A stretch of 41,168 nucleotides of DNA from a phage. The notes under the pieces were generated by a model. That model made no database searches. It had not been told where the DNA came from and saw only the letters and a list, made by a program, of their open reading frames with translations. The first letter of the stretch is position 1; every line of letters starts with the position of its first letter. The translations under genes and the position numbers were made by a program. Positions 28,818 through 40,405 of this stretch are shown in pieces. The stretch lies in the NCBI GenBank assembly GCA_013027745.1, contig GCA_013027745.1_4329.1; one strand, 5' to 3'.

Positions 28818-29026
28818 TTGGGCGTATGGGTTGTTACTTTGAGAACGGTAAAGTTAAATACTGGTTTAAGTTTGCGTCAGAAATTACTGACAGTGGATTC
28901 TACGCAGAAATATGTAAGCCTAATCATTTGTCGGAACCGACGCGCATTATTAAGATGCCAGTAGACGTGTTAAGTAAATGTCGTTTCTATGATTCAGCGC
29001 ACGCGTGGTTTTCTGGCGGTAAATAA
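28814..29026 (+). CDS. hypothetical protein
   Basis: 70 aa ORF, ATGA overlap with the upstream gene. Confidence 0.45.
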   Translation: MIGRMGCYFENGKVKYWFKFASEITDSGFYAEICKPNHLSEPTRIIKMPVDVLSKCRFYDSAHAWFSGGK

Positions 29027-29094
29027 AAGAAACCCCAACGCCAGAACGTCGGGGCCGAAGCACAAATCATCAAAGTAAGCACAAGGATTATACA

Positions 29095-29223
29095 ATGACG
29101 AAGTTAATAGTTCCACAGCTACGCCGTCAGAAACACGGCGCTGACTTCTTCGCACCGGTAAAGATGAACCGCGCAATGCGCCGTATGCAGGAAGCCTTAG
29201 AACGTGCGGAGAAAAAGAAATGA
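29095..29223 (+). CDS. small basic protein
   Basis: Hand-verified 42 aa ORF (MTKLIVPQLRRQKHGADFF...AEKKK); its TGA overlaps the primase ATG. Confidence 0.35.
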   Translation: MTKLIVPQLRRQKHGADFFAPVKMNRAMRRMQEALERAEKKK

Positions 29224-31481
29224 ATATTGTTTTTGCAACGCTGCGCAACACATTCGATAAAAACCCAGTAGCGCGTGAGATGCCGCTGGGGCAGTTTGTG
29301 GAGTATGTCTGCGACACATCGAAGCGTTTATCCGTGGATCCGTCGTGGTCTAAGGAAGAGTACGACGCTGCCAAGATTAAGCAGAAAGCTATTGCGCCTG
29401 TTGGGGGCCGCCGTAAAAACGCTATCCTGGAAGACAGTGTGGTTAAGTTCGACTTCGACCATCTCAACCGTACTCAGTACCGAGACCTGACACGCAAATT
29501 CAAGAACGCGACGTTCTTCAACATTCTGCACACAACGGCATCGCATCAGCATGCGTGTAAAAACGGGGATTACGCATTCCGCGTTCTGGTTCCGGCTCGC
29601 ACTCCGTTTAACTCTAACGATGCGTGGATGGTGCAACGGGCTATTTGTGCAGAGTTAGAAATAGACGAAGCGTTGCGCGACCACTGCACGGAAGATGGCA
29701 ACCGCCTTATCTACCTGCCGCACAAAGAGTCGAAGATAACGGTTACAGAAGGGCGTGTTATCCGTGCCGAGCGGTACATCAAGAAAGCCGAAGAGATGGG
29801 GTTGCGTAAACGCGAATCTAAGACACTTGCCGCCGATGAGCATGGGCTTAACGCTGACATTGCGCATTTCTGCGAAGCTGAGCTCGGCCTTGACGCTTTA
29901 TCCTCCGGCCGAGGGTATGAAGTGCCATGCCCCAACGAGCATCTGCATACAGGCAAAGGCTCCACCAGCATCATGCTCGATGGTAAAGAAGTGCGCTTTG
30001 TATGCCAGCACACAAACAATGGCGCTTGCACTGAGCTTAACCGTCGGCAACATTTGGCCCTGCGTATGTGCGGCCTTCCGGATGAGCTTAACGTAGACAA
30101 GCAACCTATCAGTATTAACAGCATTCGTGCGGCTTTGCCTGACTTGCCTGACGAAGAGATTGAAGAACTGCACCGCACAGAGAACGAGGCGCCTGTAACT
30201 TGCACGCTGGAAGACCTTGAAGACGAGCCGGAAGTAGAAAAAGAACCCGCTTACTCCGTCGTAGATGGCCTTATGCAGACTAACGAATCGTTCTACATTT
30301 GCGCAAAGTCTCACACGGGTAAGTCAACATTTAGTATGGCGATTGACGCTGCTATAGCTGCCGAAAAGAGATATGCGTTCGGCGGGGCTGAGGTTGCAGA
30401 AGGACACGCATTTATCTTCGCCGGTGAAGGTGCGCAGTCGTTCGAGAGGCATAAAAAATCTTTGCAGATTGCTCTTGGCGATAACCTGGACCGCTTACAC
30501 ATTATCGATTGTGTTGCGGATGGTTGTAACTTACTTGACGAAGCATGGCGGCGTCAGGCGGTGAGAATGATGCGCCGTGTTGCCGGTGAAGAGAAAATTG
30601 TAAAGGTTACGTTCGACACCCTACAAACCTGTATACCTGGCTTCGACGAAAACGACAACCGGTCTATGAAAGAAGCGGCGCAGGCTCTTAATGAAATAGC
30701 ATCGATGCTTAATGCTGCGGTGGGGGCTATGGTGCACCCGACTAAAAATATCGACGAAACAGTACCGTCGGAGAACGGCATGATGCCGAAGGGTGGAAGT
30801 GACTTTCACAACTCCATCGATAACGGTATGTTCCTGCACAAGCCGGACAACGACAATAATTTAGAGATAAACCTGTATCACATAAAGAACCGAAACGGAG
30901 AACGGCAGAAAGCCAGAGGATTCGTAATACAGAAGATTCAGATAGCGGAACCACCAGAAAAGAAAGAACCAACTCACAACTTTATGGGACTCCCGGAAGG
31001 GTACAGTAGTGACGATGTCCGCGATTTTGACGCAGGAAACCCGCACATCGATGTCTTTGTTAACTTCAACGCCTTCTCTGTTTTCGTGAAGAAAGTAGAA
31101 GGCATGACCGACGAACAGAAGGAAGCCGTTAAAGAAAAGGTAGGCCAGTTCGAGAAAATGGACACCAAAGAGGCTACGGTTATTTACGCATTGGGTAAAT
31201 TGCAGGAACAGGGCGACGATAAGCGAGGGTTCTCTATGTCGGCTATCGTCAAAGCCGCGAAAGAAGATAGTTACGGCGTACCGATTAACGCTAATAACGA
31301 CCTTCGAAAGAAACTTGAAGAGATGCACGAGGCCGGGATTATCGTCTCGGGTCTGGATAACAACAACAGACCCATACCTAAGCAGTACCGACTGCCGTGG
31401 GGCATAAACGACAACAAGATTCCGAAGACAATATACGAACCGAATGAGATGTTAACAGTGACCGAGGAGGATTTAGAATAG
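29220..31481 (+). CDS. DNA primase/helicase (AEP-type primase-polymerase domain plus P-loop helicase domain)
   Basis: N-terminal AEP motifs FDFDH and ASHQH; central Walker A AKSHTGKST; 753 aa; ends in VTEEDLE. Confidence 0.7.
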   Translation: MNIVFATLRNTFDKNPVAREMPLGQFVEYVCDTSKRLSVDPSWSKEEYDAAKIKQKAIAPVGGRRKNAILEDSVVKFDFDHLNRTQYRDLTRKFKNATFFNILHTTASHQHACKNGDYAFRVLVPARTPFNSNDAWMVQRAICAELEIDEALRDHCTEDGNRLIYLPHKESKITVTEGRVIRAERYIKKAEEMGLRKRESKTLAADEHGLNADIAHFCEAELGLDALSSGRGYEVPCPNEHLHTGKGSTSIMLDGKEVRFVCQHTNNGACTELNRRQHLALRMCGLPDELNVDKQPISINSIRAALPDLPDEEIEELHRTENEAPVTCTLEDLEDEPEVEKEPAYSVVDGLMQTNESFYICAKSHTGKSTFSMAIDAAIAAEKRYAFGGAEVAEGHAFIFAGEGAQSFERHKKSLQIALGDNLDRLHIIDCVADGCNLLDEAWRRQAVRMMRRVAGEEKIVKVTFDTLQTCIPGFDENDNRSMKEAAQALNEIASMLNAAVGAMVHPTKNIDETVPSENGMMPKGGSDFHNSIDNGMFLHKPDNDNNLEINLYHIKNRNGERQKARGFVIQKIQIAEPPEKKEPTHNFMGLPEGYSSDDVRDFDAGNPHIDVFVNFNAFSVFVKKVEGMTDEQKEAVKEKVGQFEKMDTKEATVIYALGKLQEQGDDKRGFSMSAIVKAAKEDSYGVPINANNDLRKKLEEMHEAGIIVSGLDNNNRPIPKQYRLPWGINDNKIPKTIYEPNEMLTVTEEDLE

Positions 31482-31498
31482 GTAAAAAGAAAGGGGCG

Positions 31499-31714
31499 TT
31501 AAGCCCCTTCGCCTAACGCCAGCCACTTGGCATCTACTTGCAGCACTTCCGCCAGTTTAAACAGCGTCGTCGGACGTACGTCCTGAGTTACTCCAAGTGC
31601 CAGCTGGTTAATCGCGCCCTGGGAAACGCCAGCCAGGACCGCCAGACGGCGCTGGGAGATGCCGAGTTCTTTGCGGCGTTGTTCTACACGGATGCCTAGT
31701 TCAGATGGTTGCAT
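31499..31714 (-). CDS. Cro/CI-type (XRE family) HTH transcriptional regulator
   Basis: 71 aa; RRKELGISQRRLAVLAGVSQGAINQLALG HTH; SD AAGGAG; divergent from a plus promoter. Confidence 0.75.
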   Translation of the reverse strand: MQPSELGIRVEQRRKELGISQRRLAVLAGVSQGAINQLALGVTQDVRPTTLFKLAEVLQVDAKWLALGEGA

Positions 31715-31744
31715 GTCAGTTACTCCTTAGTCAGTTGATATGTG

Positions 31745-31758
31745 AATAGTACCATATT
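31745..31758 (-). promoter_or_regulatory. -10 region and near-palindromic operator for the HTH regulator gene
   Basis: Reverse complement contains TACTATTCA (-10) in aatagtaccatatt; no good -35 found. Confidence 0.4.
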
Positions 31759-31778
31759 AATTATTTTAGAAAAGCCCA

Positions 31779-31808
31779 TTGACAACATGAATAGTTCGCT
31801 ATTATAGT
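31779..31808 (+). promoter_or_regulatory. sigma70-like promoter, class II (TTGACA-N18-TATAGT) with operator palindrome
   Basis: TTGACA 31779-31784; aatagttcgctatt 31790-31803; TATAGT 31803-31808. Confidence 0.6.
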
Positions 31809-31840
31809 TAGCCTATATCAAACGAGAGGAGAGAAACAAA

Positions 31841-31990
31841 ATGACCAATAACCGCAAAGCGAAGATTCTGTTAGGCCTTGATATTGCATTTGGGGCTAAA
31901 GAAACCGCACGATACCGCGTAAGCAACAATCGCGTTGGCTTCTTCGACAAAGCTACAGGTCAGTTAGTTAAAACCGTTAAGTATAAATAA
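31841..31990 (+). CDS. small basic protein (first gene of plus early operon)
   Basis: Hand-verified 49 aa ORF (MTNNRKAKILLGLDIAFGAKE...); SD gagaggagag. Confidence 0.4.
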   Translation: MTNNRKAKILLGLDIAFGAKETARYRVSNNRVGFFDKATGQLVKTVKYK

Positions 31991-32005
31991 ACAGGAGAGA
32001 AACAA

Positions 32006-32473
32006 ATGTTAGAGAAATTCTTAGTATTACTGGAACGTTTCGTAGTTGCACATGAACTGATTGCTGCGAACAGTGCGAAACAGGTTGTCGTTGCGGAAAC
32101 TGCAACAATCGAGCCTACTGTTGCAAAAGAAGCAACAAAAGAAATACCGGTCGAAGGTGAAGACATCGTCGACACTAAACCGGCAGAAGAAGAGAAGCCG
32201 AAACGCAAGCCGCGTAAAGCTAAAGTAGAGGAACCAACGCCAGAGCCGGAAGAGAAGGAAGAAGTCGATTATCAGTCTCTGCGTGACCAGATTCAGGCTA
32301 TCGACGATGCGATTAACGAAGGTCCGAGCGATGCCGCGTGCGATGATTCTGACGAACTGCTGGAAGAGTTCACCGGTAAGAAAATGAAGATTGCTGCGAT
32401 TAAAGACGAAGACCTGGCCGAATATCTTGAGCGCCTGACGGCAATCAAGAACAAGTATTTCGAAGAAGAATAA
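32006..32473 (+). CDS. strongly acidic protein (candidate DNA mimic / anti-restriction)
   Basis: 155 aa; my count gives 41 D/E versus 22 K/R; SD aggagag; second gene after the switch promoter. Confidence 0.55.
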   Translation: MLEKFLVLLERFVVAHELIAANSAKQVVVAETATIEPTVAKEATKEIPVEGEDIVDTKPAEEEKPKRKPRKAKVEEPTPEPEEKEEVDYQSLRDQIQAIDDAINEGPSDAACDDSDELLEEFTGKKMKIAAIKDEDLAEYLERLTAIKNKYFEEE

Positions 32474-32500
32474 CTATCTCGCGGCCTTCGGGCCGCTTTA
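32470..32500 (+). terminator. possible rho-independent terminator / attenuator
   Basis: gcggcc-ttcg-ggccgc hairpin followed by tttaact; coordinates approximate. Confidence 0.4.
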
Positions 32501-32516
32501 ACTGAGGGTCGGAATT

Positions 32517-32804
32517 ATGAAATACGAAGATATGAGTGATTTTGAAATTAACTGCCGTGTGCACGCAGAGGTTATGCAAATTTCAGGATTGAATTCGTTT
32601 AAGGCCAAAGACTACTGCAACAACCCATCTGATGCATGGCCTGTAATAATTGATAATCACATATCAATTGAATGCGTTACGGTTAACCGACATACGTTTA
32701 CATATCGCGTGTATCACTCGGCATCATTCACCAAAAGTACGCACGAAAACCCCCTTCGTGCCGCCATGATTGTCTTTCTGAAAATGCAGGAGAAGGCGCA
32801 ATGA
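32517..32804 (+). CDS. hypothetical protein
   Basis: 95 aa ORF, SD-like gagggtcgg upstream. Confidence 0.45.
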   Translation: MKYEDMSDFEINCRVHAEVMQISGLNSFKAKDYCNNPSDAWPVIIDNHISIECVTVNRHTFTYRVYHSASFTKSTHENPLRAAMIVFLKMQEKAQ

Positions 32805-33073
32805 TTTACCAACTCTACCGCGCCGTAGACAGGCGGGATAACACAGAGGCGCTATGGCTATTGCGTGCGCCGTCCGGTGCGCACCAGATGGAAGAGATGG
32901 CGTACTTAGGCAAAGTACCGCAGCCCAAAGATATAGGCCGTCACGTGTCGCAGATTAAGCGCACGACTTTCGCCAAGCCAGACTTTTATGTCTTCGAGTC
33001 GATGTATGGGTGGGCCATGCACTGCGAACATAAGACACGGCATTTAATTGACCAATGGGAGAACAGGGTATGA
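32801..33073 (+). CDS. hypothetical protein
   Basis: 90 aa ORF, ATGA coupling at both ends. Confidence 0.45.
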   Translation: MIYQLYRAVDRRDNTEALWLLRAPSGAHQMEEMAYLGKVPQPKDIGRHVSQIKRTTFAKPDFYVFESMYGWAMHCEHKTRHLIDQWENRV

Positions 33074-34344
33074 TTTTAAAGGAACGCGGTGGCAATAATG
33101 ATGTGCACGCCTTACTGTCACCGTCTGGTGCTAAAAAGTGGCTAAGCTGCGCCGCATCACTGGCCTGTGAAAAAGATATTCCTAACACGTCCGGTAAATC
33201 CGCCGTTACAGGAACTGCATGTCACACCATAGCCGAGGTACATCTCAACGCCTATATCCGCGGCACTGCGCTGCCGTTAGAGCGTGAAGTTGGCGCTTAC
33301 GTGCTGGATGAAGGCAAAGGCCAGATTAAGGCACTAATTAGCCCAATGAAAGGCGCGGTACTTATTACGGCGGACATGATTGAGCAGGTGCGCAAGTACA
33401 CCGACTACTGCAAACCAATTATCGATGTAGCGACTTACGCCAAGCTGGAAATGCGCGTCAATCTTACTGAGGTATTGCACCCGGGTTACGAAGGCGTTGA
33501 GACGTTCGGGACCGCTGACCTTGTTGCCGTACAGGAACTGGCGAACACCGACGAGCACATGTTAATTATCGGTGACCTGAAAACAGGGCGACATCGTGTT
33601 GAAGCAAAAGAAAACAAGCAGCTTATGCTTTACGCTCTCGGTGTTTATCGCCGACTCAAGAGACGTTACAACATCACAGTTGTGCGTCTGGTTATCTTCC
33701 AGCCGTATGCTGGAGGTGCGTCGGAGTGGGACATCTCGGTTGAAGGTCTGGAACTGTTCGCTAAGTTCGCACAGAAACGTGCGCTGTTAGCGCTTGATGC
33801 TTATTTCCGTGGCAAGAAGAATCTGAAAGCATCTGACTTCAGGCCGTCGGTAGATGGTTGTCAGTGGTGTCGGTTCGCTGAACAATGCGCTGCGCGTACA
33901 AAAACCGTTAACTCGGTACTGGCGGAAGAACTGGAAGACGACTTTGCGCTGGAACTGACGCCTGAGCAACTCGTAGCTGAGTATGAGAAGTTGCCGTTGC
34001 TGCGACAGCACATTGATAAGGTCGAGAAAGCTATGGCTGCCGCGTTGCATTCCGGTAAGAAAGTGCCGGGGTACAAGTTGGTAGAAGGACGCCCAGGCAA
34101 TCGTGCGTGGAAAGATGAAGACGCAGTAAATAAATTCAGAGAAAACCATGTAAACGGCTACTTATTAGATAAACTAGTGCCAGTTACCCCAACAGAAGCA
34201 GAAAAAACCATAGGTAAAATTGACCCAGAACTGTGGGAAGAATTGGCTAAACTCGTGACCCGTAAGCCAGGCGCGCCATGCGTTGCAACAGCAGACGACA
34301 AACGTCCTGAGTGGAATCAGGTAACAGAGGAGGATTTAGAATGA
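33070..34344 (+). CDS. Cas4/RecB-like PD-(D/E)xK exonuclease (DUF2800-like)
   Basis: N-terminal Cys, IGDLKTGRHRV (D-x-K), C-terminal CQWCRFAEQC cluster; likely start MILKERGG at 33070; ends in VTEEDLE. Confidence 0.65.
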   Translation: MILKERGGNNDVHALLSPSGAKKWLSCAASLACEKDIPNTSGKSAVTGTACHTIAEVHLNAYIRGTALPLEREVGAYVLDEGKGQIKALISPMKGAVLITADMIEQVRKYTDYCKPIIDVATYAKLEMRVNLTEVLHPGYEGVETFGTADLVAVQELANTDEHMLIIGDLKTGRHRVEAKENKQLMLYALGVYRRLKRRYNITVVRLVIFQPYAGGASEWDISVEGLELFAKFAQKRALLALDAYFRGKKNLKASDFRPSVDGCQWCRFAEQCAARTKTVNSVLAEELEDDFALELTPEQLVAEYEKLPLLRQHIDKVEKAMAAALHSGKKVPGYKLVEGRPGNRAWKDEDAVNKFRENHVNGYLLDKLVPVTPTEAEKTIGKIDPELWEELAKLVTRKPGAPCVATADDKRPEWNQVTEEDLE

Positions 34345-34592
34345 TTCGTAAAATGTTCAGGGCGCTTGGTGGGCTTATAGCGTGTATTGTTTTCTGGGTT
34401 CTTATGCTGCCGCTAACGCTACCAACATTTATCTTAATGTGTATTACAGTATGTATCGCACAAACTCGCGACATCGAAGCCATCCTGAGCGATAAATCGT
34501 GGAAGACACAGGCGCTTCGATTCATAAACAACATGAAATGGCCAAGCAAGTATATTGAGATAGTTGAGAAAATAACTGGCTGGAAGGGTTGA
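34341..34592 (+). CDS. small membrane protein
   Basis: 83 aa, two hydrophobic segments; ATG overlaps the nuclease stop with GAGGAGG SD inside the nuclease 3' end. Confidence 0.5.
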   Translation: MIRKMFRALGGLIACIVFWVLMLPLTLPTFILMCITVCIAQTRDIEAILSDKSWKTQALRFINNMKWPSKYIEIVEKITGWKG

Positions 34593-34617
34593 CACCTGAA
34601 TAGTTAGCTATTATAGT
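34589..34617 (+). promoter_or_regulatory. sigma70-like promoter, class II (TTGACA-N17-TATAGT) with operator palindrome
   Basis: TTGACA 34589-34594; aatagttagctatt 34599-34612; TATAGT 34612-34617. Confidence 0.65.
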
Positions 34618-34671
34618 TCTAATCACTGGCCGGGCAGCTTCCCGGAGTAAACTGAAAAGCGAGAAATCACG

Positions 34672-35298
34672 ATGGGTATTAAACTGAATCTGCGTAAAGT
34701 AAACACTGCATGGGTTAACGTATTCGAACGCGAAAAAGACCGTGAAAACGATGATGGCTCAATTACTAAAGGCCAGTACAGCGCGACTATCATCCTGCCG
34801 TCTGACCATGCTCAAATCGATGCACTCTACGACACTGTTTATGCTGTAGTTGAAGAAGCATTAGGTGCAGCAGCCGCCGAGAAGTGGATGAAGTCCAACT
34901 ACGGCGAAGGCAAGCACATGGATAAATGCGCGATTAAAGACATTGCCGAGCGCGACAATCCGTTTGAAGACTTCCCGGAAGGCTTCTACTTCAAAGCGAA
35001 AGCACAGAAACAGCCGCTGATTGTAACCTCTAAAAAAGGTGAGACTCAGGTAGAGCAGGACTTCAACGTAGACGGCGAACAGATTGAAGGCGAACAGGTT
35101 TACAGCGGCTGCGTAGCTAACGTAAGCGTCGAAATCTGGTTCAGCCAGAAATACAAAGTTCTCGGTGTTAACCTGCTGGCAATTAAATACGTCGGCGAAG
35201 GTAAAGCGTTTGGTGGTTCTAAAGTCGCCGCAAGCGTCAATGACCTGGAAGACGATGAAGAAGATGTAGCACCGCGCCGTGAACGTCGCCGCCGCTAA
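34672..35298 (+). CDS. DUF2815-like protein, possible ssDNA-binding protein
   Basis: 208 aa, acidic/basic C-terminal tail (DDEEDVAPRRERRRR); sits between the Cas4-like nuclease and the polymerase. Confidence 0.5.
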   Translation: MGIKLNLRKVNTAWVNVFEREKDRENDDGSITKGQYSATIILPSDHAQIDALYDTVYAVVEEALGAAAAEKWMKSNYGEGKHMDKCAIKDIAERDNPFEDFPEGFYFKAKAQKQPLIVTSKKGETQVEQDFNVDGEQIEGEQVYSGCVANVSVEIWFSQKYKVLGVNLLAIKYVGEGKAFGGSKVAASVNDLEDDEEDVAPRRERRRR

Positions 35299-35304
35299 TA
35301 TCTG

Positions 35305-35340
35305 AATCAATTTAACTAAGGCCCTTCATTGGGTCTTTTT
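35305..35340 (+). terminator. possible rho-independent terminator / attenuator before the polymerase gene
   Basis: Imperfect aggccc-ttcatt-gggtct hairpin followed by tttttact; coordinates approximate. Confidence 0.35.
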
Positions 35341-35357
35341 ACTAAGGGTCAAAAATA

Positions 35358-37631
35358 ATGAGTTACCTGTTCTTAGACTTTGAAACATTCTCCGAAGCCG
35401 ATTTAAAGAAAGTCGGTTCCTACGCTTACGCCGAACACCCAACTACCGAAGTACTTATCTGTACATACGCTTTTGACGACGAGCCTGTGCGGGTATGGGA
35501 TTGCACCGACGGCAGCGACATGCCGGGGGATTTGCATCGCGCGTTACGCCGTCTGGTTAAGCCGAACAGCCGTATTAAGATGGTATGGCACAACGGCTCA
35601 ATGTTCGACAGGCTCATCATGAAACACTGCTGGGGCTTTGACATTCCTGTAAGCAACACCATTGATACGATGATTTGGGCGTTTCGACACGCGCTTCCGG
35701 GTTCGCTCGAAGCATTGTGTGAAGTGCTGAGCGTATCCGCGGACAACGCGAAAGATAAACGCGGTAAGGCGCTGATTAAGCGTTTCTCTAAACCGACGCC
35801 GAAGAACTACAAAATCCGCCGCTACACCGCCGAAACACACCCGGACGAGTGGGCGCTGTTCATCAAGTACGCCGTGAGCGACATCACTGCGATGCGTGAA
35901 GTCTTCCATAAGCTGCCGCGGTGGGGTAACTCTGAGTTTGAGGACCGTGTACTGGAGCTGGACCAGTTAATCAATGACCGAGGCTTCTTTGTTGATACGG
36001 CTCTTGCCGAGGCAGCGGTAGCGGCAGTTGAACGCCACAAGCAAGAGCTGAAAAACGAGGCCCGCGCGAAATTCGGGGGGAAACTAACGGGCAAAGACTT
36101 CCTGCCAATCCTTCGGGAACTGGCACCGGCTTACAATATCTATAATGCGCAAAAAGCAACGCTCGAAGGTTTGCTAGAGGACGACGACTTACCTGATGAT
36201 GCGCGCACAATCATTGAGATGCGCCTCGGCGCAGCCTCCACGGCGTCGACAAAATACAAACCGCTCCTGCTAGGACGGTCCAAAGATGGACGCCGCCGCG
36301 GTTGCATCCAGTACGGGGGGGCAAAGCGCACTTTACGATTTGCGGGTAAAGGGTTCCAACCGCAGAACCTGTCGCGCGGGTACTATCATGACGACCCAAC
36401 TAACGAGGAAAAGAAACTTGTACGCCAGCCGTGGGAGTCTGATGAAGACTGGAACCGCAGGCTTAACCCGCTATCATTTGGCATCAATTTGCTTTTAAAG
36501 GGCCGGGCGCATCGCCGTTTCGATGTGTCTAAACTGACGGCCTCAACTGTCCGCAGTTGCATCATCCCGGAAAAAGGTAATAAGTTGCTCGTTGCCGACT
36601 ACTCAAACGTGGAAGGGCGTGGGTTAGCCTGGGCGGCGGGGGAGACGTCCGCCCTTGAGACGTTCCGTGCGGGGATTGATATTTATTGCGCCACTGCGGG
36701 CAAGATGTTTGGTATGGACCCCGTAGAACTGAAAGCCACCCGTAAAGACCTGCGACAGGTCGGGAAATGTTGCGAGCTAGGCCTCGGCTACGAGGGGGGC
36801 GTAGGGGCCTTCATGACTATGGCTAAAACTTACGGGCTGGACCTCTTTAAAATGACGGAGACAATGCGGGGAACATTCCCTGACCATATATGGGCCGCCA
36901 CTGCCCGAGGCTATGAATGGGCACGGATTCAGGAGGCTAAGCGGCCCCCAAAACCCGGTAAAAAGGATGAACGGGCCTCTTATGTGTTGCCTAAGGAAGT
37001 GTGGCGCACCTGCGATGCTATCAAGCGCATGTGGCGGGAAGCCCATCCGGAAACAGTGAAATTCTGGAACGACCTTAAGGATTCGGTAATTGCCGCAATC
37101 AGAAATCCGGGACGAGAGTTTTGGGCGGGGGCCAGAGTCCGCCTTAACGGCGACAGAGCTATTCGCATCTGGCGTACTAAAGAGAAAGATAGTCAGGGTA
37201 GATTTGTGCCGGGTTGGTGGTTGTGTGTAGAACTGCCGTCAGGGCGCGTCATGTCGTACCCCGGCATAGGTCTGAGCGTTACTAAAGAAACTGACGAGGA
37301 TGGGCGCGTAACAACTAACGTTCGCATTAAGTACCAGGGCGAAAACCAGACCACCCGCCAGTGGACAACTTTGTACACACACGGCGGAAAATTGTGTGAA
37401 AACATCATCCAGGCGTTGTGCCGTGATTTACTGGTTAACGGACTCCTGACGGTCGAGACGGCGGGCTACCCAATTGTACTCCACGTACATGACGAATGTG
37501 TTGCCGAAACGCCAGACACGCCAGAGTACACGGTTAAAGAGATGGGTGACCTGCTATGCTCATTACCCGAATGGGCCGAAGGGTTCCCGTTAACATGGGC
37601 TGGGGAAGAGGTGTACCGTTATGCTAAGTAA
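35358..37631 (+). CDS. DNA polymerase I (family A) with 3'-5' exonuclease domain
   Basis: Exo motif LFLDFETFS near the N-terminus; polymerase motif A DYSNVEGRGLAW and motif C LHVHDECV. Confidence 0.9.
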   Translation: MSYLFLDFETFSEADLKKVGSYAYAEHPTTEVLICTYAFDDEPVRVWDCTDGSDMPGDLHRALRRLVKPNSRIKMVWHNGSMFDRLIMKHCWGFDIPVSNTIDTMIWAFRHALPGSLEALCEVLSVSADNAKDKRGKALIKRFSKPTPKNYKIRRYTAETHPDEWALFIKYAVSDITAMREVFHKLPRWGNSEFEDRVLELDQLINDRGFFVDTALAEAAVAAVERHKQELKNEARAKFGGKLTGKDFLPILRELAPAYNIYNAQKATLEGLLEDDDLPDDARTIIEMRLGAASTASTKYKPLLLGRSKDGRRRGCIQYGGAKRTLRFAGKGFQPQNLSRGYYHDDPTNEEKKLVRQPWESDEDWNRRLNPLSFGINLLLKGRAHRRFDVSKLTASTVRSCIIPEKGNKLLVADYSNVEGRGLAWAAGETSALETFRAGIDIYCATAGKMFGMDPVELKATRKDLRQVGKCCELGLGYEGGVGAFMTMAKTYGLDLFKMTETMRGTFPDHIWAATARGYEWARIQEAKRPPKPGKKDERASYVLPKEVWRTCDAIKRMWREAHPETVKFWNDLKDSVIAAIRNPGREFWAGARVRLNGDRAIRIWRTKEKDSQGRFVPGWWLCVELPSGRVMSYPGIGLSVTKETDEDGRVTTNVRIKYQGENQTTRQWTTLYTHGGKLCENIIQALCRDLLVNGLLTVETAGYPIVLHVHDECVAETPDTPEYTVKEMGDLLCSLPEWAEGFPLTWAGEEVYRYAK

Positions 37632-38490: not shown

Positions 38491-38984
38491 GTAAATTCAG
38501 TAGAAGACCCGATATTGAAGAGGCGAAACGTCTTCTTAACTATGACCCCGAAACAGGTATATTTACACGAAAAGTAAGCATAAAAGGTAGAAATGCGGGG
38601 GAGGTAGCCGGGGGGCCAAACGACAAAGGATACATAGTTATCACAGTATCTGGTGTAAGAATAAAAGCCCACCATCTGGCATGGGCTTTCGTCTACGGAG
38701 AATACCATAATGGTGAGCTTGGCCATAAAGACCGTAACAGGGCCAATAACGCCATAAATAATATAAGGCCTGCAACCAGGAGCCAGCAGATTCAGAACCG
38801 CGAATGCTCATCGTATAACACTAGCGGCGCGATAGGGGTTTACCAAATACCATCGGGCCGGTGGCGCGCCAGAATAGGCGTCAATAACAAATACATCCAC
38901 CTTGGCTATTTTGACACTATAGAAGAAGCGTCGCGCGCATACCAAAGAGCCGCGGAAATATACTTCGGGGAGTTCAAGCCATGA
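38487..38984 (+). CDS. HNH homing endonuclease with AP2 DNA-binding domain
   Basis: HNH region HHLAWAFVYGEYHNGELGHKDRNRANNAINNIR; AP2 region GVYQIPSGRWRARIGVNNKYIHLGYFDTIEEASRAYQRAA. Confidence 0.8.
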   Translation: MSKFSRRPDIEEAKRLLNYDPETGIFTRKVSIKGRNAGEVAGGPNDKGYIVITVSGVRIKAHHLAWAFVYGEYHNGELGHKDRNRANNAINNIRPATRSQQIQNRECSSYNTSGAIGVYQIPSGRWRARIGVNNKYIHLGYFDTIEEASRAYQRAAEIYFGEFKP

Positions 38985-40405
38985 GTAAGTTTAGGCGCAG
39001 GGAATACCAGAAAATAATGACGTCGTTTATGTTACAGCATCCGCGCTGCAATATCTGGTGTGGTATGGGTGGCGGTAAGACCTCATCAACGATGTGGGTG
39101 CTTAACCGCCTGTTCCGCAACGGACAACTTAATGACGACGACCGAGTGTTAATCCTCGCCCCGCTGCGCGTTGCATCCGGCACATGGCCCGCAGAACAAG
39201 AGAAATGGCGATTCCCGTGCCTGCGTGTCGTAGATGCGACAGGTTCAGAGAAACGCCGCATCGCGGCGCTGGAGTCAGATGCTAACGTGGTGTGTACCAA
39301 CTACGAAGTTATCGAGTGGCTGATTGACTACTACGGCAAAGACGACTGGCCTTTTACGGTTATCGTTGCCGATGAAAGCACGAAACTTAAATCTTTCCGT
39401 AGCCGTTCTGGTGGCAGCAAGCGCGCGAAGGCACTCAGCAAAGTGGCGTTCGGCAAGGTTAAGCGGTTCATTAACCTGACAGGTACGCCGTCGCCAAACG
39501 GCCTCAAAGACCTGTGGGGTCAGAACTGGTTTATCGACGCTGGTGAGCGCCTCGGTTCTTCCTACACAGCATTCACCGACCGCTGGTTTAACTCGGTACA
39601 GAAAGGTAAGTCGGCGATGGCGCGGGAGTACCACGCACGCCCGGGCGCGGATAATGAAATTCACCAGAAGATGAAAGACATAAGCCTCACGATTGACGCC
39701 GCTGAGTGGTTCGGGTGTGAAGCGCCGATTATTGTTCCGGTTGAAATCGACCTGCCGAAGAAGGCGCGTCAGGCGTACATCGATATGGAGGAGAAGTTAT
39801 TCGCGGAACTGGAGAGCGGAGAAGTTGAAGCGGCTAACGCGGCGGCGAAGACGTCAAAGTGTTTGCAGATTGCCTCCGGTGCCGTATATGTGTCGGGGCC
39901 AGACGGTGAGGCAACCAAAGACTGGGAGAAAGTGCACGACACGAAACTGGATGCGCTGGAGTCTATCGTTGAGGAGTTACAGGGCGCACCGTTGCTTGTG
40001 GCTTATCAGTTTAAGCATGAACTGGAGCGCATCCTTAAGCGATTCCCGCAGGCGCAGGCGTTTGCAAAAGGCGCCAAGGGTAATAAGCAGATGGAAGCGT
40101 GGAACCGCGGCGAAATCGAAATCTTATGCGTGCATCCTGCGTCGGCCGGGCATGGTTTGAATTTACAGGACGGCGGACATCATCTGGCATTCATCTCGCA
40201 AGGCTGGAACCTTGAGCACTATTTGCAGGTTGTCGAGCGTATAGGCCCGGTCCGCCAGAAACAGGCAGGCCACGAGCGCCCAGTGTTCCTCTATCATATC
40301 GTTGCCAAAGACACGCTGGATGAGGTTGTTGCCGCGCGTACGGACGAGAAGAAATCTGTACAGGAAGAGTTGCTTAATTACATGAAGAGACGAGGTAAGA
40401 AATGA
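38981..40405 (+). CDS. SNF2/DEAD-like helicase
   Basis: Walker A GMGGGKTS, DExx box VIVADESTKLK, LTGTPSPNGL motif, C-terminal helicase domain. Confidence 0.8.
   Translation: MSKFRRREYQKIMTSFMLQHPRCNIWCGMGGGKTSSTMWVLNRLFRNGQLNDDDRVLILAPLRVASGTWPAEQEKWRFPCLRVVDATGSEKRRIAALESDANVVCTNYEVIEWLIDYYGKDDWPFTVIVADESTKLKSFRSRSGGSKRAKALSKVAFGKVKRFINLTGTPSPNGLKDLWGQNWFIDAGERLGSSYTAFTDRWFNSVQKGKSAMAREYHARPGADNEIHQKMKDISLTIDAAEWFGCEAPIIVPVEIDLPKKARQAYIDMEEKLFAELESGEVEAANAAAKTSKCLQIASGAVYVSGPDGEATKDWEKVHDTKLDALESIVEELQGAPLLVAYQFKHELERILKRFPQAQAFAKGAKGNKQMEAWNRGEIEILCVHPASAGHGLNLQDGGHHLAFISQGWNLEHYLQVVERIGPVRQKQAGHERPVFLYHIVAKDTLDEVVAARTDEKKSVQEELLNYMKRRGKK

Follow-up and report, generated by a model that had tools for sequence, protein, structure and literature searches.

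A short acidic motif shared by the helicase-primase, nuclease and single-stranded DNA-binding protein in a Kagunavirus-type phage: a probable docking peptide

Why should two different replication proteins of one phage end in the same seven amino acids? The question is raised by a 41,168-nucleotide stretch of phage DNA (GenBank assembly GCA_013027745.1, contig GCA_013027745.1_4329.1; the whole stretch is referred to here as the window), in which a replicative helicase-primase and a RecB/Cas4-like nuclease both terminate in the heptapeptide VTEEDLE (Table 1). An initial annotation, made from the sequence without database searches, had reported both tails, had stressed that they are encoded by near-identical DNA that might double as a ribosome-binding site, and had suggested that they could be docking peptides like the acidic tails of gp4 and gp2.5 in phage T7. 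The reading that we favor, with a probability of roughly 0.7, is that VTEEDLE is a short linear docking motif of the type found on single-stranded DNA-binding proteins (SSBs), and that it is shared by three proteins, the third being a gp2.5-like SSB of the DUF2815 family encoded downstream of the nuclease. By sequence similarity the window is a genome segment of a Kagunavirus-type siphophage, and a megablast of positions 29000-36000 matched 462 phage records, the best of them Kagunavirus genomes from Escherichia and Raoultella phages (90-93% identity).

The sharing of VTEEDLE is real and far beyond chance. Both open reading frames (ORFs) and the codons of both tails were confirmed. The exact common sequence is a 16-mer, GAGGAGGATTTAGAAT, at positions 31464-31479 and 34327-34342, i.e., one base higher than first reported (31463-31478 and 34326-34341). 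It had no third match in the window when up to three mismatches were allowed (0.15 expected), and two matches were obtained in 0 of 100 shuffled sequences. The Val and Thr codons are unlike between the two copies, so that the identity of the peptides reaches beyond the identity of the DNA. Among the 177 ORFs of at least 60 residues in the window, the helicase-primase and the nuclease were the sole real pair of genes with the same last five residues, and a loose pattern for the motif gave three matches only in the whole window, i.e., the nuclease, the helicase-primase and the SSB. A comparison of the helicase-primase with the nuclease using BLASTP revealed no similarity outside the seven residues, and a wider homology of the two C-terminal regions was therefore rejected.

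One check proposed with the initial annotation was whether the tail is conserved in orthologs. It is kept in both families and in several genera, a result that favors the docking idea. Ends resembling [VA][TS]E[ED]DLE were present in 119 of the 120 closest helicase-primase homologs, and the 120 closest homologs of the nuclease had them essentially without exception. Comparisons paired by genome were made with 74 viral contigs (loci), in which nuclease identity ranged from 100% down to 44%. In 67 loci the helicase-primase ended in [VAT][ST][DE][DEG]DL followed by zero to two residues, and these included alleles that are 33-61% identical. When 3657 ORFs of at least 80 residues from 75 loci were scanned, none but those of the nuclease (69) and the helicase-primase (67) had the motif close to the C-terminus. 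The general form at both C-termini, [AVT][ST][DE]xDL, is retained in about 60 related genomes that represent at least five lineages, and in the nuclease the tail comes after a family-wide motif, D(K/P)RP(A/E), that closes the fold. Two nuclease genes have no terminal motif: that of locus L045 stops early in unrelated sequence (...SHGVCF), probably because of a frameshift or truncation, and that of L014 has lost its stop codon, extending the tail to ...DDLEALTS.

As judged from these sequences, the tails of the nuclease and the helicase-primase drift in parallel across clades. They read, respectively, VTEEDLE and VTEEDLE in Kagunavirus, VTEDDLEA and TTEGDLE in the L006-type clade (where the primase is about 26% identical to that of the window), ASDEDLS and ASDEDLNS in the Klebsiella VLCpiS11a-like clade, and ATDEDLSNE and ATDDDLKD in Dhillonvirus. 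The mean similarity of tails to that of the nuclease was 24.3 for the primase, 3.8 for the family-A DNA polymerase, 2.3 for the SNF2 helicase and 1.9 for the extreme C-terminus of the SSB, and the within-genome score for the nuclease and primase tails was higher than in 2000 of 2000 cross-genome permutations (in which kinship was ignored).

The initial annotation had two carriers of the motif; the SSB also carries it, making three. The tail of the window's SSB reads ASVNDLEDD (residues 187-195), and there is no start codon nearby, the motif being internal to the gene. In an AlphaFold2 (AF2) model, the oligonucleotide-binding (OB) fold extends to about residue 178, and residues 183-199 are disordered, with a predicted local distance difference test score (pLDDT) of less than 50; the alignment for this structure was built from database matches only, with no close relatives in it. 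For the SSB, this places the motif in a flexible tail.

The relationship of VTEEDLE to the tail of the SSB emerged from more distant members of the nuclease family. In the best 150 of 11,854 DUF2800 representatives (E ≤ 0.001), the fold again closes at D(K/P)RP(A/E); a brief linker then leads into an acidic/hydrophobic tail, the usual form of which is ...DDFEDLT...DL[VIA], and distant DUF2800 nucleases likewise have tails of the DDFxDL type. In an unbiased C-terminus search of about 150 distant DUF2800 loci, the best match was not a primase, but an ORF of about 180 residues lying directly downstream. These downstream ORFs matched an iterated hidden Markov model derived from the window's SSB, and the one from L162 was assigned to DUF2815 by Pfam. 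The distant SSBs end in ...ASEDEFDD[ILV]xEGAxADDLV, and A-S-E-D-E-F-D-D-[ILV] was present in 113 of 120 DUF2815 SSBs from databases, which formed an independent set. Enterobacterial SSBs, including that of the window, have A-[ST]-x-[DN]-D-L-[DE]-D in the identical alignment columns, with Leu replacing Phe, and in an alignment of SSBs from all clades the motif columns come directly after the conserved DG(D/E)AFGGG that ends the OB fold. VTEEDLE can be matched with ASEDEFD position by position (V with A, T with S, E with E, E with D, D with E, L with F and E with D), and on this alignment it is a copy of the core of a gp2.5-type SSB tail.

The aligned tails also indicate that the SSB copy tracks those of the nuclease and helicase-primase clade by clade. 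The SSB, nuclease and helicase-primase read CSDEDLGDD, ASDEDLNDE and ATDDDLKD in Dhillonvirus, ATDSDLDD, ATDSDLDD and SEEDDLEN in L087, and ATDDDLDD, VSDDDLSN and AEDDDLAD in L106. In the enterobacterial clades, the motif was counted in 52/58 SSBs, 49/58 nucleases, 51/52 primases, 0/54 polymerases and 0/54 SNF2 helicases. The equivalent counts in the distant clades were 62/68, 74/93, 10/59, 0/74 and 0/68, the primases that carry the motif including D5_N/PriCT-2 primases, and against a background of unrelated ORFs of at least 150 residues the pattern was matched by 20 of 1073. Over their last four residues, the nuclease and SSB of a distant genome shared 1.29 identities, compared with 0.84 when the pairs were permuted (0/5000 permutations). 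The motif is specific to the three proteins, and in all loci taken together it was never found on the polymerase (0/128) or the SNF2 helicase (0/122).

The C-termini of the polymerase (37600-37631 in the window) and SNF2 helicase (40375-40405) are themselves conserved and basic in every clade, ending in ...KRYAK or ...YRYRK[DE] in the former, and in ...YMKRRGKK or ...AMKRK... in the latter. These basic ends may form the counterpart to the acidic tails, or they may be simply structural.

It is largely through short tails docking on hubs that replisomes hold together, with phage T7 being the textbook case. The idea that VTEEDLE is a docking peptide is well supported by the comparative evidence, and is stronger once the copy in the SSB is recognized. 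The motif consists of an acidic stretch around a single hydrophobic anchor, Leu (or Phe in the distant SSBs). The SSB displays it on its disordered tail, and the nuclease and helicase-primase at their extreme C-termini. By analogy with T7, all three proteins would use it to reach one basic site on a shared partner, for which they would compete, and this sharing would tether the helicase-primase and nuclease to the machinery of replication and recombination. That the motif binds anything, and which partner it binds, we infer by analogy; the leading candidates would be the family-A DNA polymerase of the phage and the SSB's own OB groove.

The polymerase of T7 has two basic patches to which the acidic helicase-primase tail binds (PMC5997990). 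The tail of gp2.5 likewise contacts the polymerase at basic patches, interacts with the helicase-primase, and also binds the DNA groove of the SSB itself (PMC5686142). The comparison with gp2.5 and gp4 made in the initial annotation fits well, in that the SSB and helicase-primase of one phage have similar acidic tails with a hydrophobic anchor, which are conserved, co-varying and specific. The window's SSB is a true gp2.5-type homolog with an OB-like β structure in its AF2 model, and, as in T7, its motif lies on a disordered segment, while the nuclease tail lies beyond the fold. However, there are also differences. There is a third, unrelated carrier, the nuclease, which in the wider family has the tail more constantly than the others. 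In addition, the helicase-primase belongs to a different family from gp4 (AAA_25/RepA-like), and binding of the tails to the polymerase would be by analogy.

Two other systems invite comparison. ORF6 of phage Enc34 is a DUF2815 protein of the same Pfam family as the window's SSB, with an OB fold and, after it, an acidic C-terminal segment that lacks structure and is seen in the crystal to enter the groove of a neighboring molecule (PMC5686142). Its tail is purely acidic (16 of the last 29 residues being Asp or Glu), whereas that of the window's SSB is acidic and then basic (…DLEDDEEDVAPRRERRRR). The Enc34 study describes the acidic tail of the SSB only, and no sharing of it with a nuclease or primase. 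Exonuclease/annealase pairs, such as Exo and Red-β of phage λ, form specific complexes (PMC6393309). There, as here, the gene for a resection exonuclease lies beside that for an annealing or binding protein, and a contact between the DUF2800 and DUF2815 proteins through the tail would be equivalent. However, Exo binds a folded C-terminal domain of Red-β rather than a short acidic tail, and the λ proteins are not homologous to those of the window, save for the distant PD-(D/E)XK fold. In the searchable literature, neither the motif nor its presence on several proteins was found to have been described, using motif strings and descriptions of tails in these genera.

Several points weigh against the docking interpretation. 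Firstly, the T7 tails require a C-terminal aromatic residue, whereas the tails studied here end in ...D-L-E, with Leu at position -2 followed by Glu, and the Phe of the distant SSBs is internal to the tail. Secondly, the motif in the window's SSB is also internal, being followed (35251-35298, residues 194-208) by an acidic run and then an Arg-rich end (APRRERRRR). Thirdly, the last nine residues of the nuclease have a mean pLDDT of 81, with a helical turn at 425-428, and may pack on their own domain. Fourthly, plaques can form without the Dhillonvirus nuclease Bas14_0045 (B14T) from phage Bas14, a DUF2800 protein of the orthologous family in the class with about 47% identity (bioRxiv 10.64898/2026.07.14.737667); any function of the nuclease tail is thus not essential in the laboratory. 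The same preprint reports that this nuclease is active, that it triggers the type IX retron and that it has a "C-terminal disordered region"; the terminal motif, and its copies in the helicase-primase and SSB, are not mentioned.

Other reservations concern the statistics. The permutation tests were made without correction for phylogeny, the independent lineages numbering roughly eight; the motif pattern used for the clade counts fits the observed variants, having been chosen after the data had been seen. Within Kagunavirus, moreover, conservation of the primase tail is explained in part not by independent selection but by a conserved DNA island, about 65 nucleotides (nt) long, in which the helicase-primase gene ends. 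At least three highly divergent alleles of the helicase-primase (98%, 61% and 33% identity) occur in a genus in which the nuclease is at least 85% identical, and the island is about 95% identical at the DNA level to Kagunavirus genomes that have the 33%-identical allele and other downstream genes. It looks like a mosaic recombination joint. Within the genus the primase tail lies in this island, and it is the comparisons between genera that give independent evidence of selection for the peptide.

A more ambitious version of the docking proposal, which we put forward tentatively and regard as somewhat doubtful, is that the peptide is a general "address tag" of a very large phage module for replication and recombination, DUF2800-DUF2815-PolA-SNF2, with one receptor site, a hand-off switch and migration of the motif onto new helicase-primases. 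The SSB, the nuclease and, in some lineages, the primase-helicase would compete for the one receptor, and occupancy would pass between fork progression (helicase-primase bound), coating of single-stranded DNA (SSB bound) and resection or annealing (nuclease bound). An unrelated helicase-primase would have acquired the tag in the enterobacterial siphophages, where the copy in the SSB would have been buried under the Arg-rich extension. If true, this would be a linear motif that migrates between non-homologous replisome proteins while its receptor stays constant.

The tail extension of the SSB varies between clades. In the SSBs of Dhillonvirus and the Klebsiella VLCpiS11a-like phages it has grown to several alternating acidic and basic repeats (DEDEDEKPRKRRKPR...), giving proteins of about 250 residues (examples being L059:11748-12503 and L054:11614-12366), whereas distant DUF2815 SSBs, including that of Enc34, have tails that are purely acidic. 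A nuclease with an extension at the other end was also found: P0253 (758 residues) has the DUF2800 nuclease at residues 354-756 with a tail reading ...TDDDLSD, plus an N-terminal extension of 350 residues that had no Pfam match. This extension could be a clue to the partner, or an artefact of gene calling.

Which other explanations might account for the shared peptide? The one that survives best, although we consider it improbable, is that each tail acts in cis, as a DNA mimic or autoinhibitor that folds onto the protein bearing it and regulates the DNA binding or activity of that protein; no partner would be shared, and the similarity would reflect a shared physico-chemical need. The tails of T7 gp2.5 and Enc34 ORF6 do sit in the DNA-binding groove of the SSB, and the latter tunes discrimination between single- and double-stranded DNA (PMC5686142); the nuclease tail, modeled with fairly high confidence and with a helical turn, would also fit packing on its own body. 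However, a need for generic negative charge predicts neither the position-by-position match, nor an invariant hydrophobic anchor, nor parallel clade-by-clade drift in three non-homologous proteins.

The acidic tip of the bacterial SSB, ...DDDIPF (...MDFDDDIPF in Escherichia coli), is a hub for many partners, with the terminal Pro-Phe being the main binding determinant. A second explanation, slightly less probable again than action in cis, is that the phage motif imitates this tip, recruiting or titrating the client proteins of the host SSB. Like the bacterial tip, it is an acidic peptide with a hydrophobic anchor on a disordered SSB tail, and both the D-E-F-D-D-[ILV] of the distant clades and the enterobacterial xDDDL resemble DFDDDI. 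However, the terminal Pro-Phe is absent in every clade, and an assignment to the bacterial motif itself was rejected, acidic-hydrophobic character alone being shared. Also unlike the bacterial case, several proteins display one peptide, instead of one SSB presenting it to many clients. The module is self-sufficient, with a polymerase, primase-helicase, SNF2 helicase and nuclease all its own, and the motif is alike in phages of very different hosts, points that both weigh against host-directed mimicry. A β-clamp-binding motif (QL[SD]LF), with Gln at position 1 and a final hydrophobic pair, was rejected on inspection, since the tails lack a Gln in register and finish in acidic residues.

A third explanation, which we regard as very unlikely, is that the feature under selection is the DNA, i.e., a cassette for ribosome binding and translational coupling, or a recombination joint, homogenized by gene conversion and with the peptide as a by-product. 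There is a Shine-Dalgarno-like element: GAGGAGG at 34327-34333 (+), within the codons of the nuclease tail, precedes the ATG at 34341 by 7 nt, as would be expected of a purine-rich site placed 5-10 nt upstream of an overlapping start. In relatives of the nuclease, GAG-GAG codons that form this element track the overlapping downstream ORF (17/17 against 0/17), being used in all 17 variants that have such an ORF and in none of the 17 variants with other codons; in 15 of the latter 17 there is a TAA stop followed by a promoter-like TTGACA...TATTAT. The two codon classes (17 + 17 variants) may be just two haplotypes, with the same peptide in both. The earlier proposal that GAGGAGG serves the gene starting at 34341 thus looks correct, since codon choice tracks that gene. 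This ribosome-binding role is likely to be real but secondary, shaping the choice of synonymous codons and not the peptide. Small, unrelated genes of various kinds at the ATGA junction, seen at both sites, and the 65-nt island at the primase end, would also fit a feature of the DNA.

The peptide, however, persists where the DNA changes. The nuclease tail is kept with gaa gaa...TAA codons and no overlapping gene, at the primase copy no association between a Shine-Dalgarno sequence and a downstream ORF was found among relatives (p = 0.28), and the copy in the SSB is internal to its gene; on these grounds the Shine-Dalgarno sequence was ruled out as the cause of peptide conservation. The observation that no gene follows the primase copy is correct for the window, where there is a hairpin and a convergent repressor gene, but not in general, as some relatives have a gene overlapping at ATGA instead. 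Across the clades, the Asp codons (GAT/GAC) and Leu codons (TTA/TTG/CTG/CTT) vary, so that the peptide is encoded with four different Leu codons in two families, and it is maintained in the haplotypes with TAA stops, in Dhillonvirus and in the Klebsiella phage clades. Synonymous sites differ between the two tail copies in relatives. At positions with the same residue, the same synonymous codon was used in both copies with a frequency of 0.582 within genomes versus 0.579 between genomes, and the last five codons were identical in just 3 of 31 distinct genome pairs. There is thus no sign of gene conversion, and this or duplication was ruled out as the origin of the 16-base identity. The weight originally placed on near-identical DNA was misplaced, the identity being a coincidence of codon choice. 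The pattern of codons suggests that selection acts on the peptide, and not on the DNA.

Finally, a chance coincidence of two acidic C-termini has almost no probability: such C-termini are common, and the peptide is short and of low complexity, but only about 7e-6 matches of seven C-terminal residues are expected among 73 non-overlapping ORFs in the window, and the match recurs, in modified form, in every related lineage.

If VTEEDLE does act as a docking peptide, it would extend the principle established with the T7 tails to another and far more widespread module, occurring in Kagunavirus, the L006-type phages, Dhillonvirus, Klebsiella phages and thousands of metagenomic relatives. There would be two new elements, i.e., a recombination nuclease that belongs, with the SSB and helicase-primase, to one tag system, and a tag carried by non-homologous primase-helicases in different lineages. 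Although the principle itself is already known from T7, this three-way sharing, with its apparent transfer to a non-homologous helicase-primase, is notable and readily testable. A seven-residue peptide with one invariant Leu/Phe offers a precise and cheap experimental handle, which could be used in phages held in laboratory collections, such as the BASEL-collection relatives of the window and Dhillonvirus Bas14, and it bears on a nuclease known to trigger a retron defense system. For annotation, the lesson is that identical ends of phage genes need not imply duplication or gene conversion.

Table 1. Positions of the genes, motif copies and associated features in the window
Feature	Position	Strand	Evidence or remarks
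Replicative helicase-primase, 753 residues	29220-31481	+	PHROG 3228 "replicative helicase-primase" over full length, E = 2.5e-295; Pfam AAA_25 at residues 335-510
Conserved-DNA island, ~65 nt, at 3' end of helicase-primase gene (~20 codons)	~31417-31481 (left edge approximate)	+	Flanks unalignable on both sides
Helicase-primase tail V-T-E-E-D-L-E (copy 1)	31458-31478	+	Codons gtg acc gag gag gat tta gaa; stop TAG 31479-31481
GC-rich hairpin between convergent helicase-primase and repressor genes	~31490-31510		Terminator-like site scored on minus strand
Helix-turn-helix transcriptional repressor, convergent with helicase-primase	31499-31714	-	PHROG 4, 5823 and 8 repressor/regulator families; DicA-like in a relative
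Three small genes of unknown function	Between repressor and nuclease
DUF2800/PD-(D/E)XK RecB-Cas4-like exonuclease, 429 residues	33055-34344	+	Pfam DUF2800 E = 3.9e-70, PDDEXK_1; PHROG 69 exonuclease
Nuclease tail V-T-E-E-D-L-E (copy 2)	34321-34341	+	Codons gta aca gag gag gat tta gaa; stop TGA 34342-34344
Small hydrophobic ORF, 83 residues	34341-34592	+	ATGA overlap with nuclease stop; no Pfam or PHROG match
Gp2.5-like single-stranded DNA-binding/annealing protein (DUF2815 SSB), 208 residues	34672-35298	+	Pfam PF10991 Enc34_ssDNA-bd E = 9e-16; PHROG 112 E = 2.7e-41
SSB motif A-S-V-N-D-L-E (copy 3, residues 187-193)	35230-35250	+	Followed by DDEEDVAPRRERRRR
Family-A DNA polymerase	35358-37631
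SNF2 helicase	38981-40405

The labels of primase/helicase and Cas4-like nuclease given to the two genes in the initial annotation were borne out by the PHROG and Pfam matches and by structural comparison. Relatives annotate the helicase-primase gene in the same way. The nuclease scored 237 bits with Pfam DUF2800 (cut-off 21) and 34 bits with PDDEXK_1 (cut-off 22). Its cysteines C32, C269, C272 and C278 were invariant in 30 diverse sequences, making it, by sequence, of the Fe-S cluster type. The AF2 model of the nuclease had a mean pLDDT of 89, and was matched by Foldseek with AdnA, AddAB, Dna2, MGME1, Exo5, RecE and Cas4.

The 83-residue ORF that overlaps the end of the nuclease gene has been annotated with the same overlap in phage L AB-2017, and its N-terminus resembles those of ORFs in relatives, the VLCpiS11a-like clade among them. 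Across the relatives (L001-L058), at least five unrelated small genes are joined to the nuclease by the same ATGA overlap, and in some genomes unrelated genes with an ATGA overlap also follow the helicase-primase tail. The conserved tail DNA may provide an attachment point for variable small genes. A σ70-like match over the primase tail (31452-31479, +; TTAACA, 16 nt, TAGAAT; 10/12) was set aside as probably due to chance, there being six such sites with 4.1 expected.

Between the repressor and the nuclease, a 155-residue protein (PHROG 3127; 32006-32473) has an acidic tail of its own with a different sequence (...KNKYFEEE). Strong matches to σ70-like promoters (TTGACA, 17-18 nt, TATAGT; 11/12) occur at 31779-31808, upstream of the gene cluster that starts at 32006, and at 34589-34617, upstream of the SSB gene. 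These promoter-like matches suggest that the nuclease gene and the SSB and polymerase genes belong to separate transcription units.

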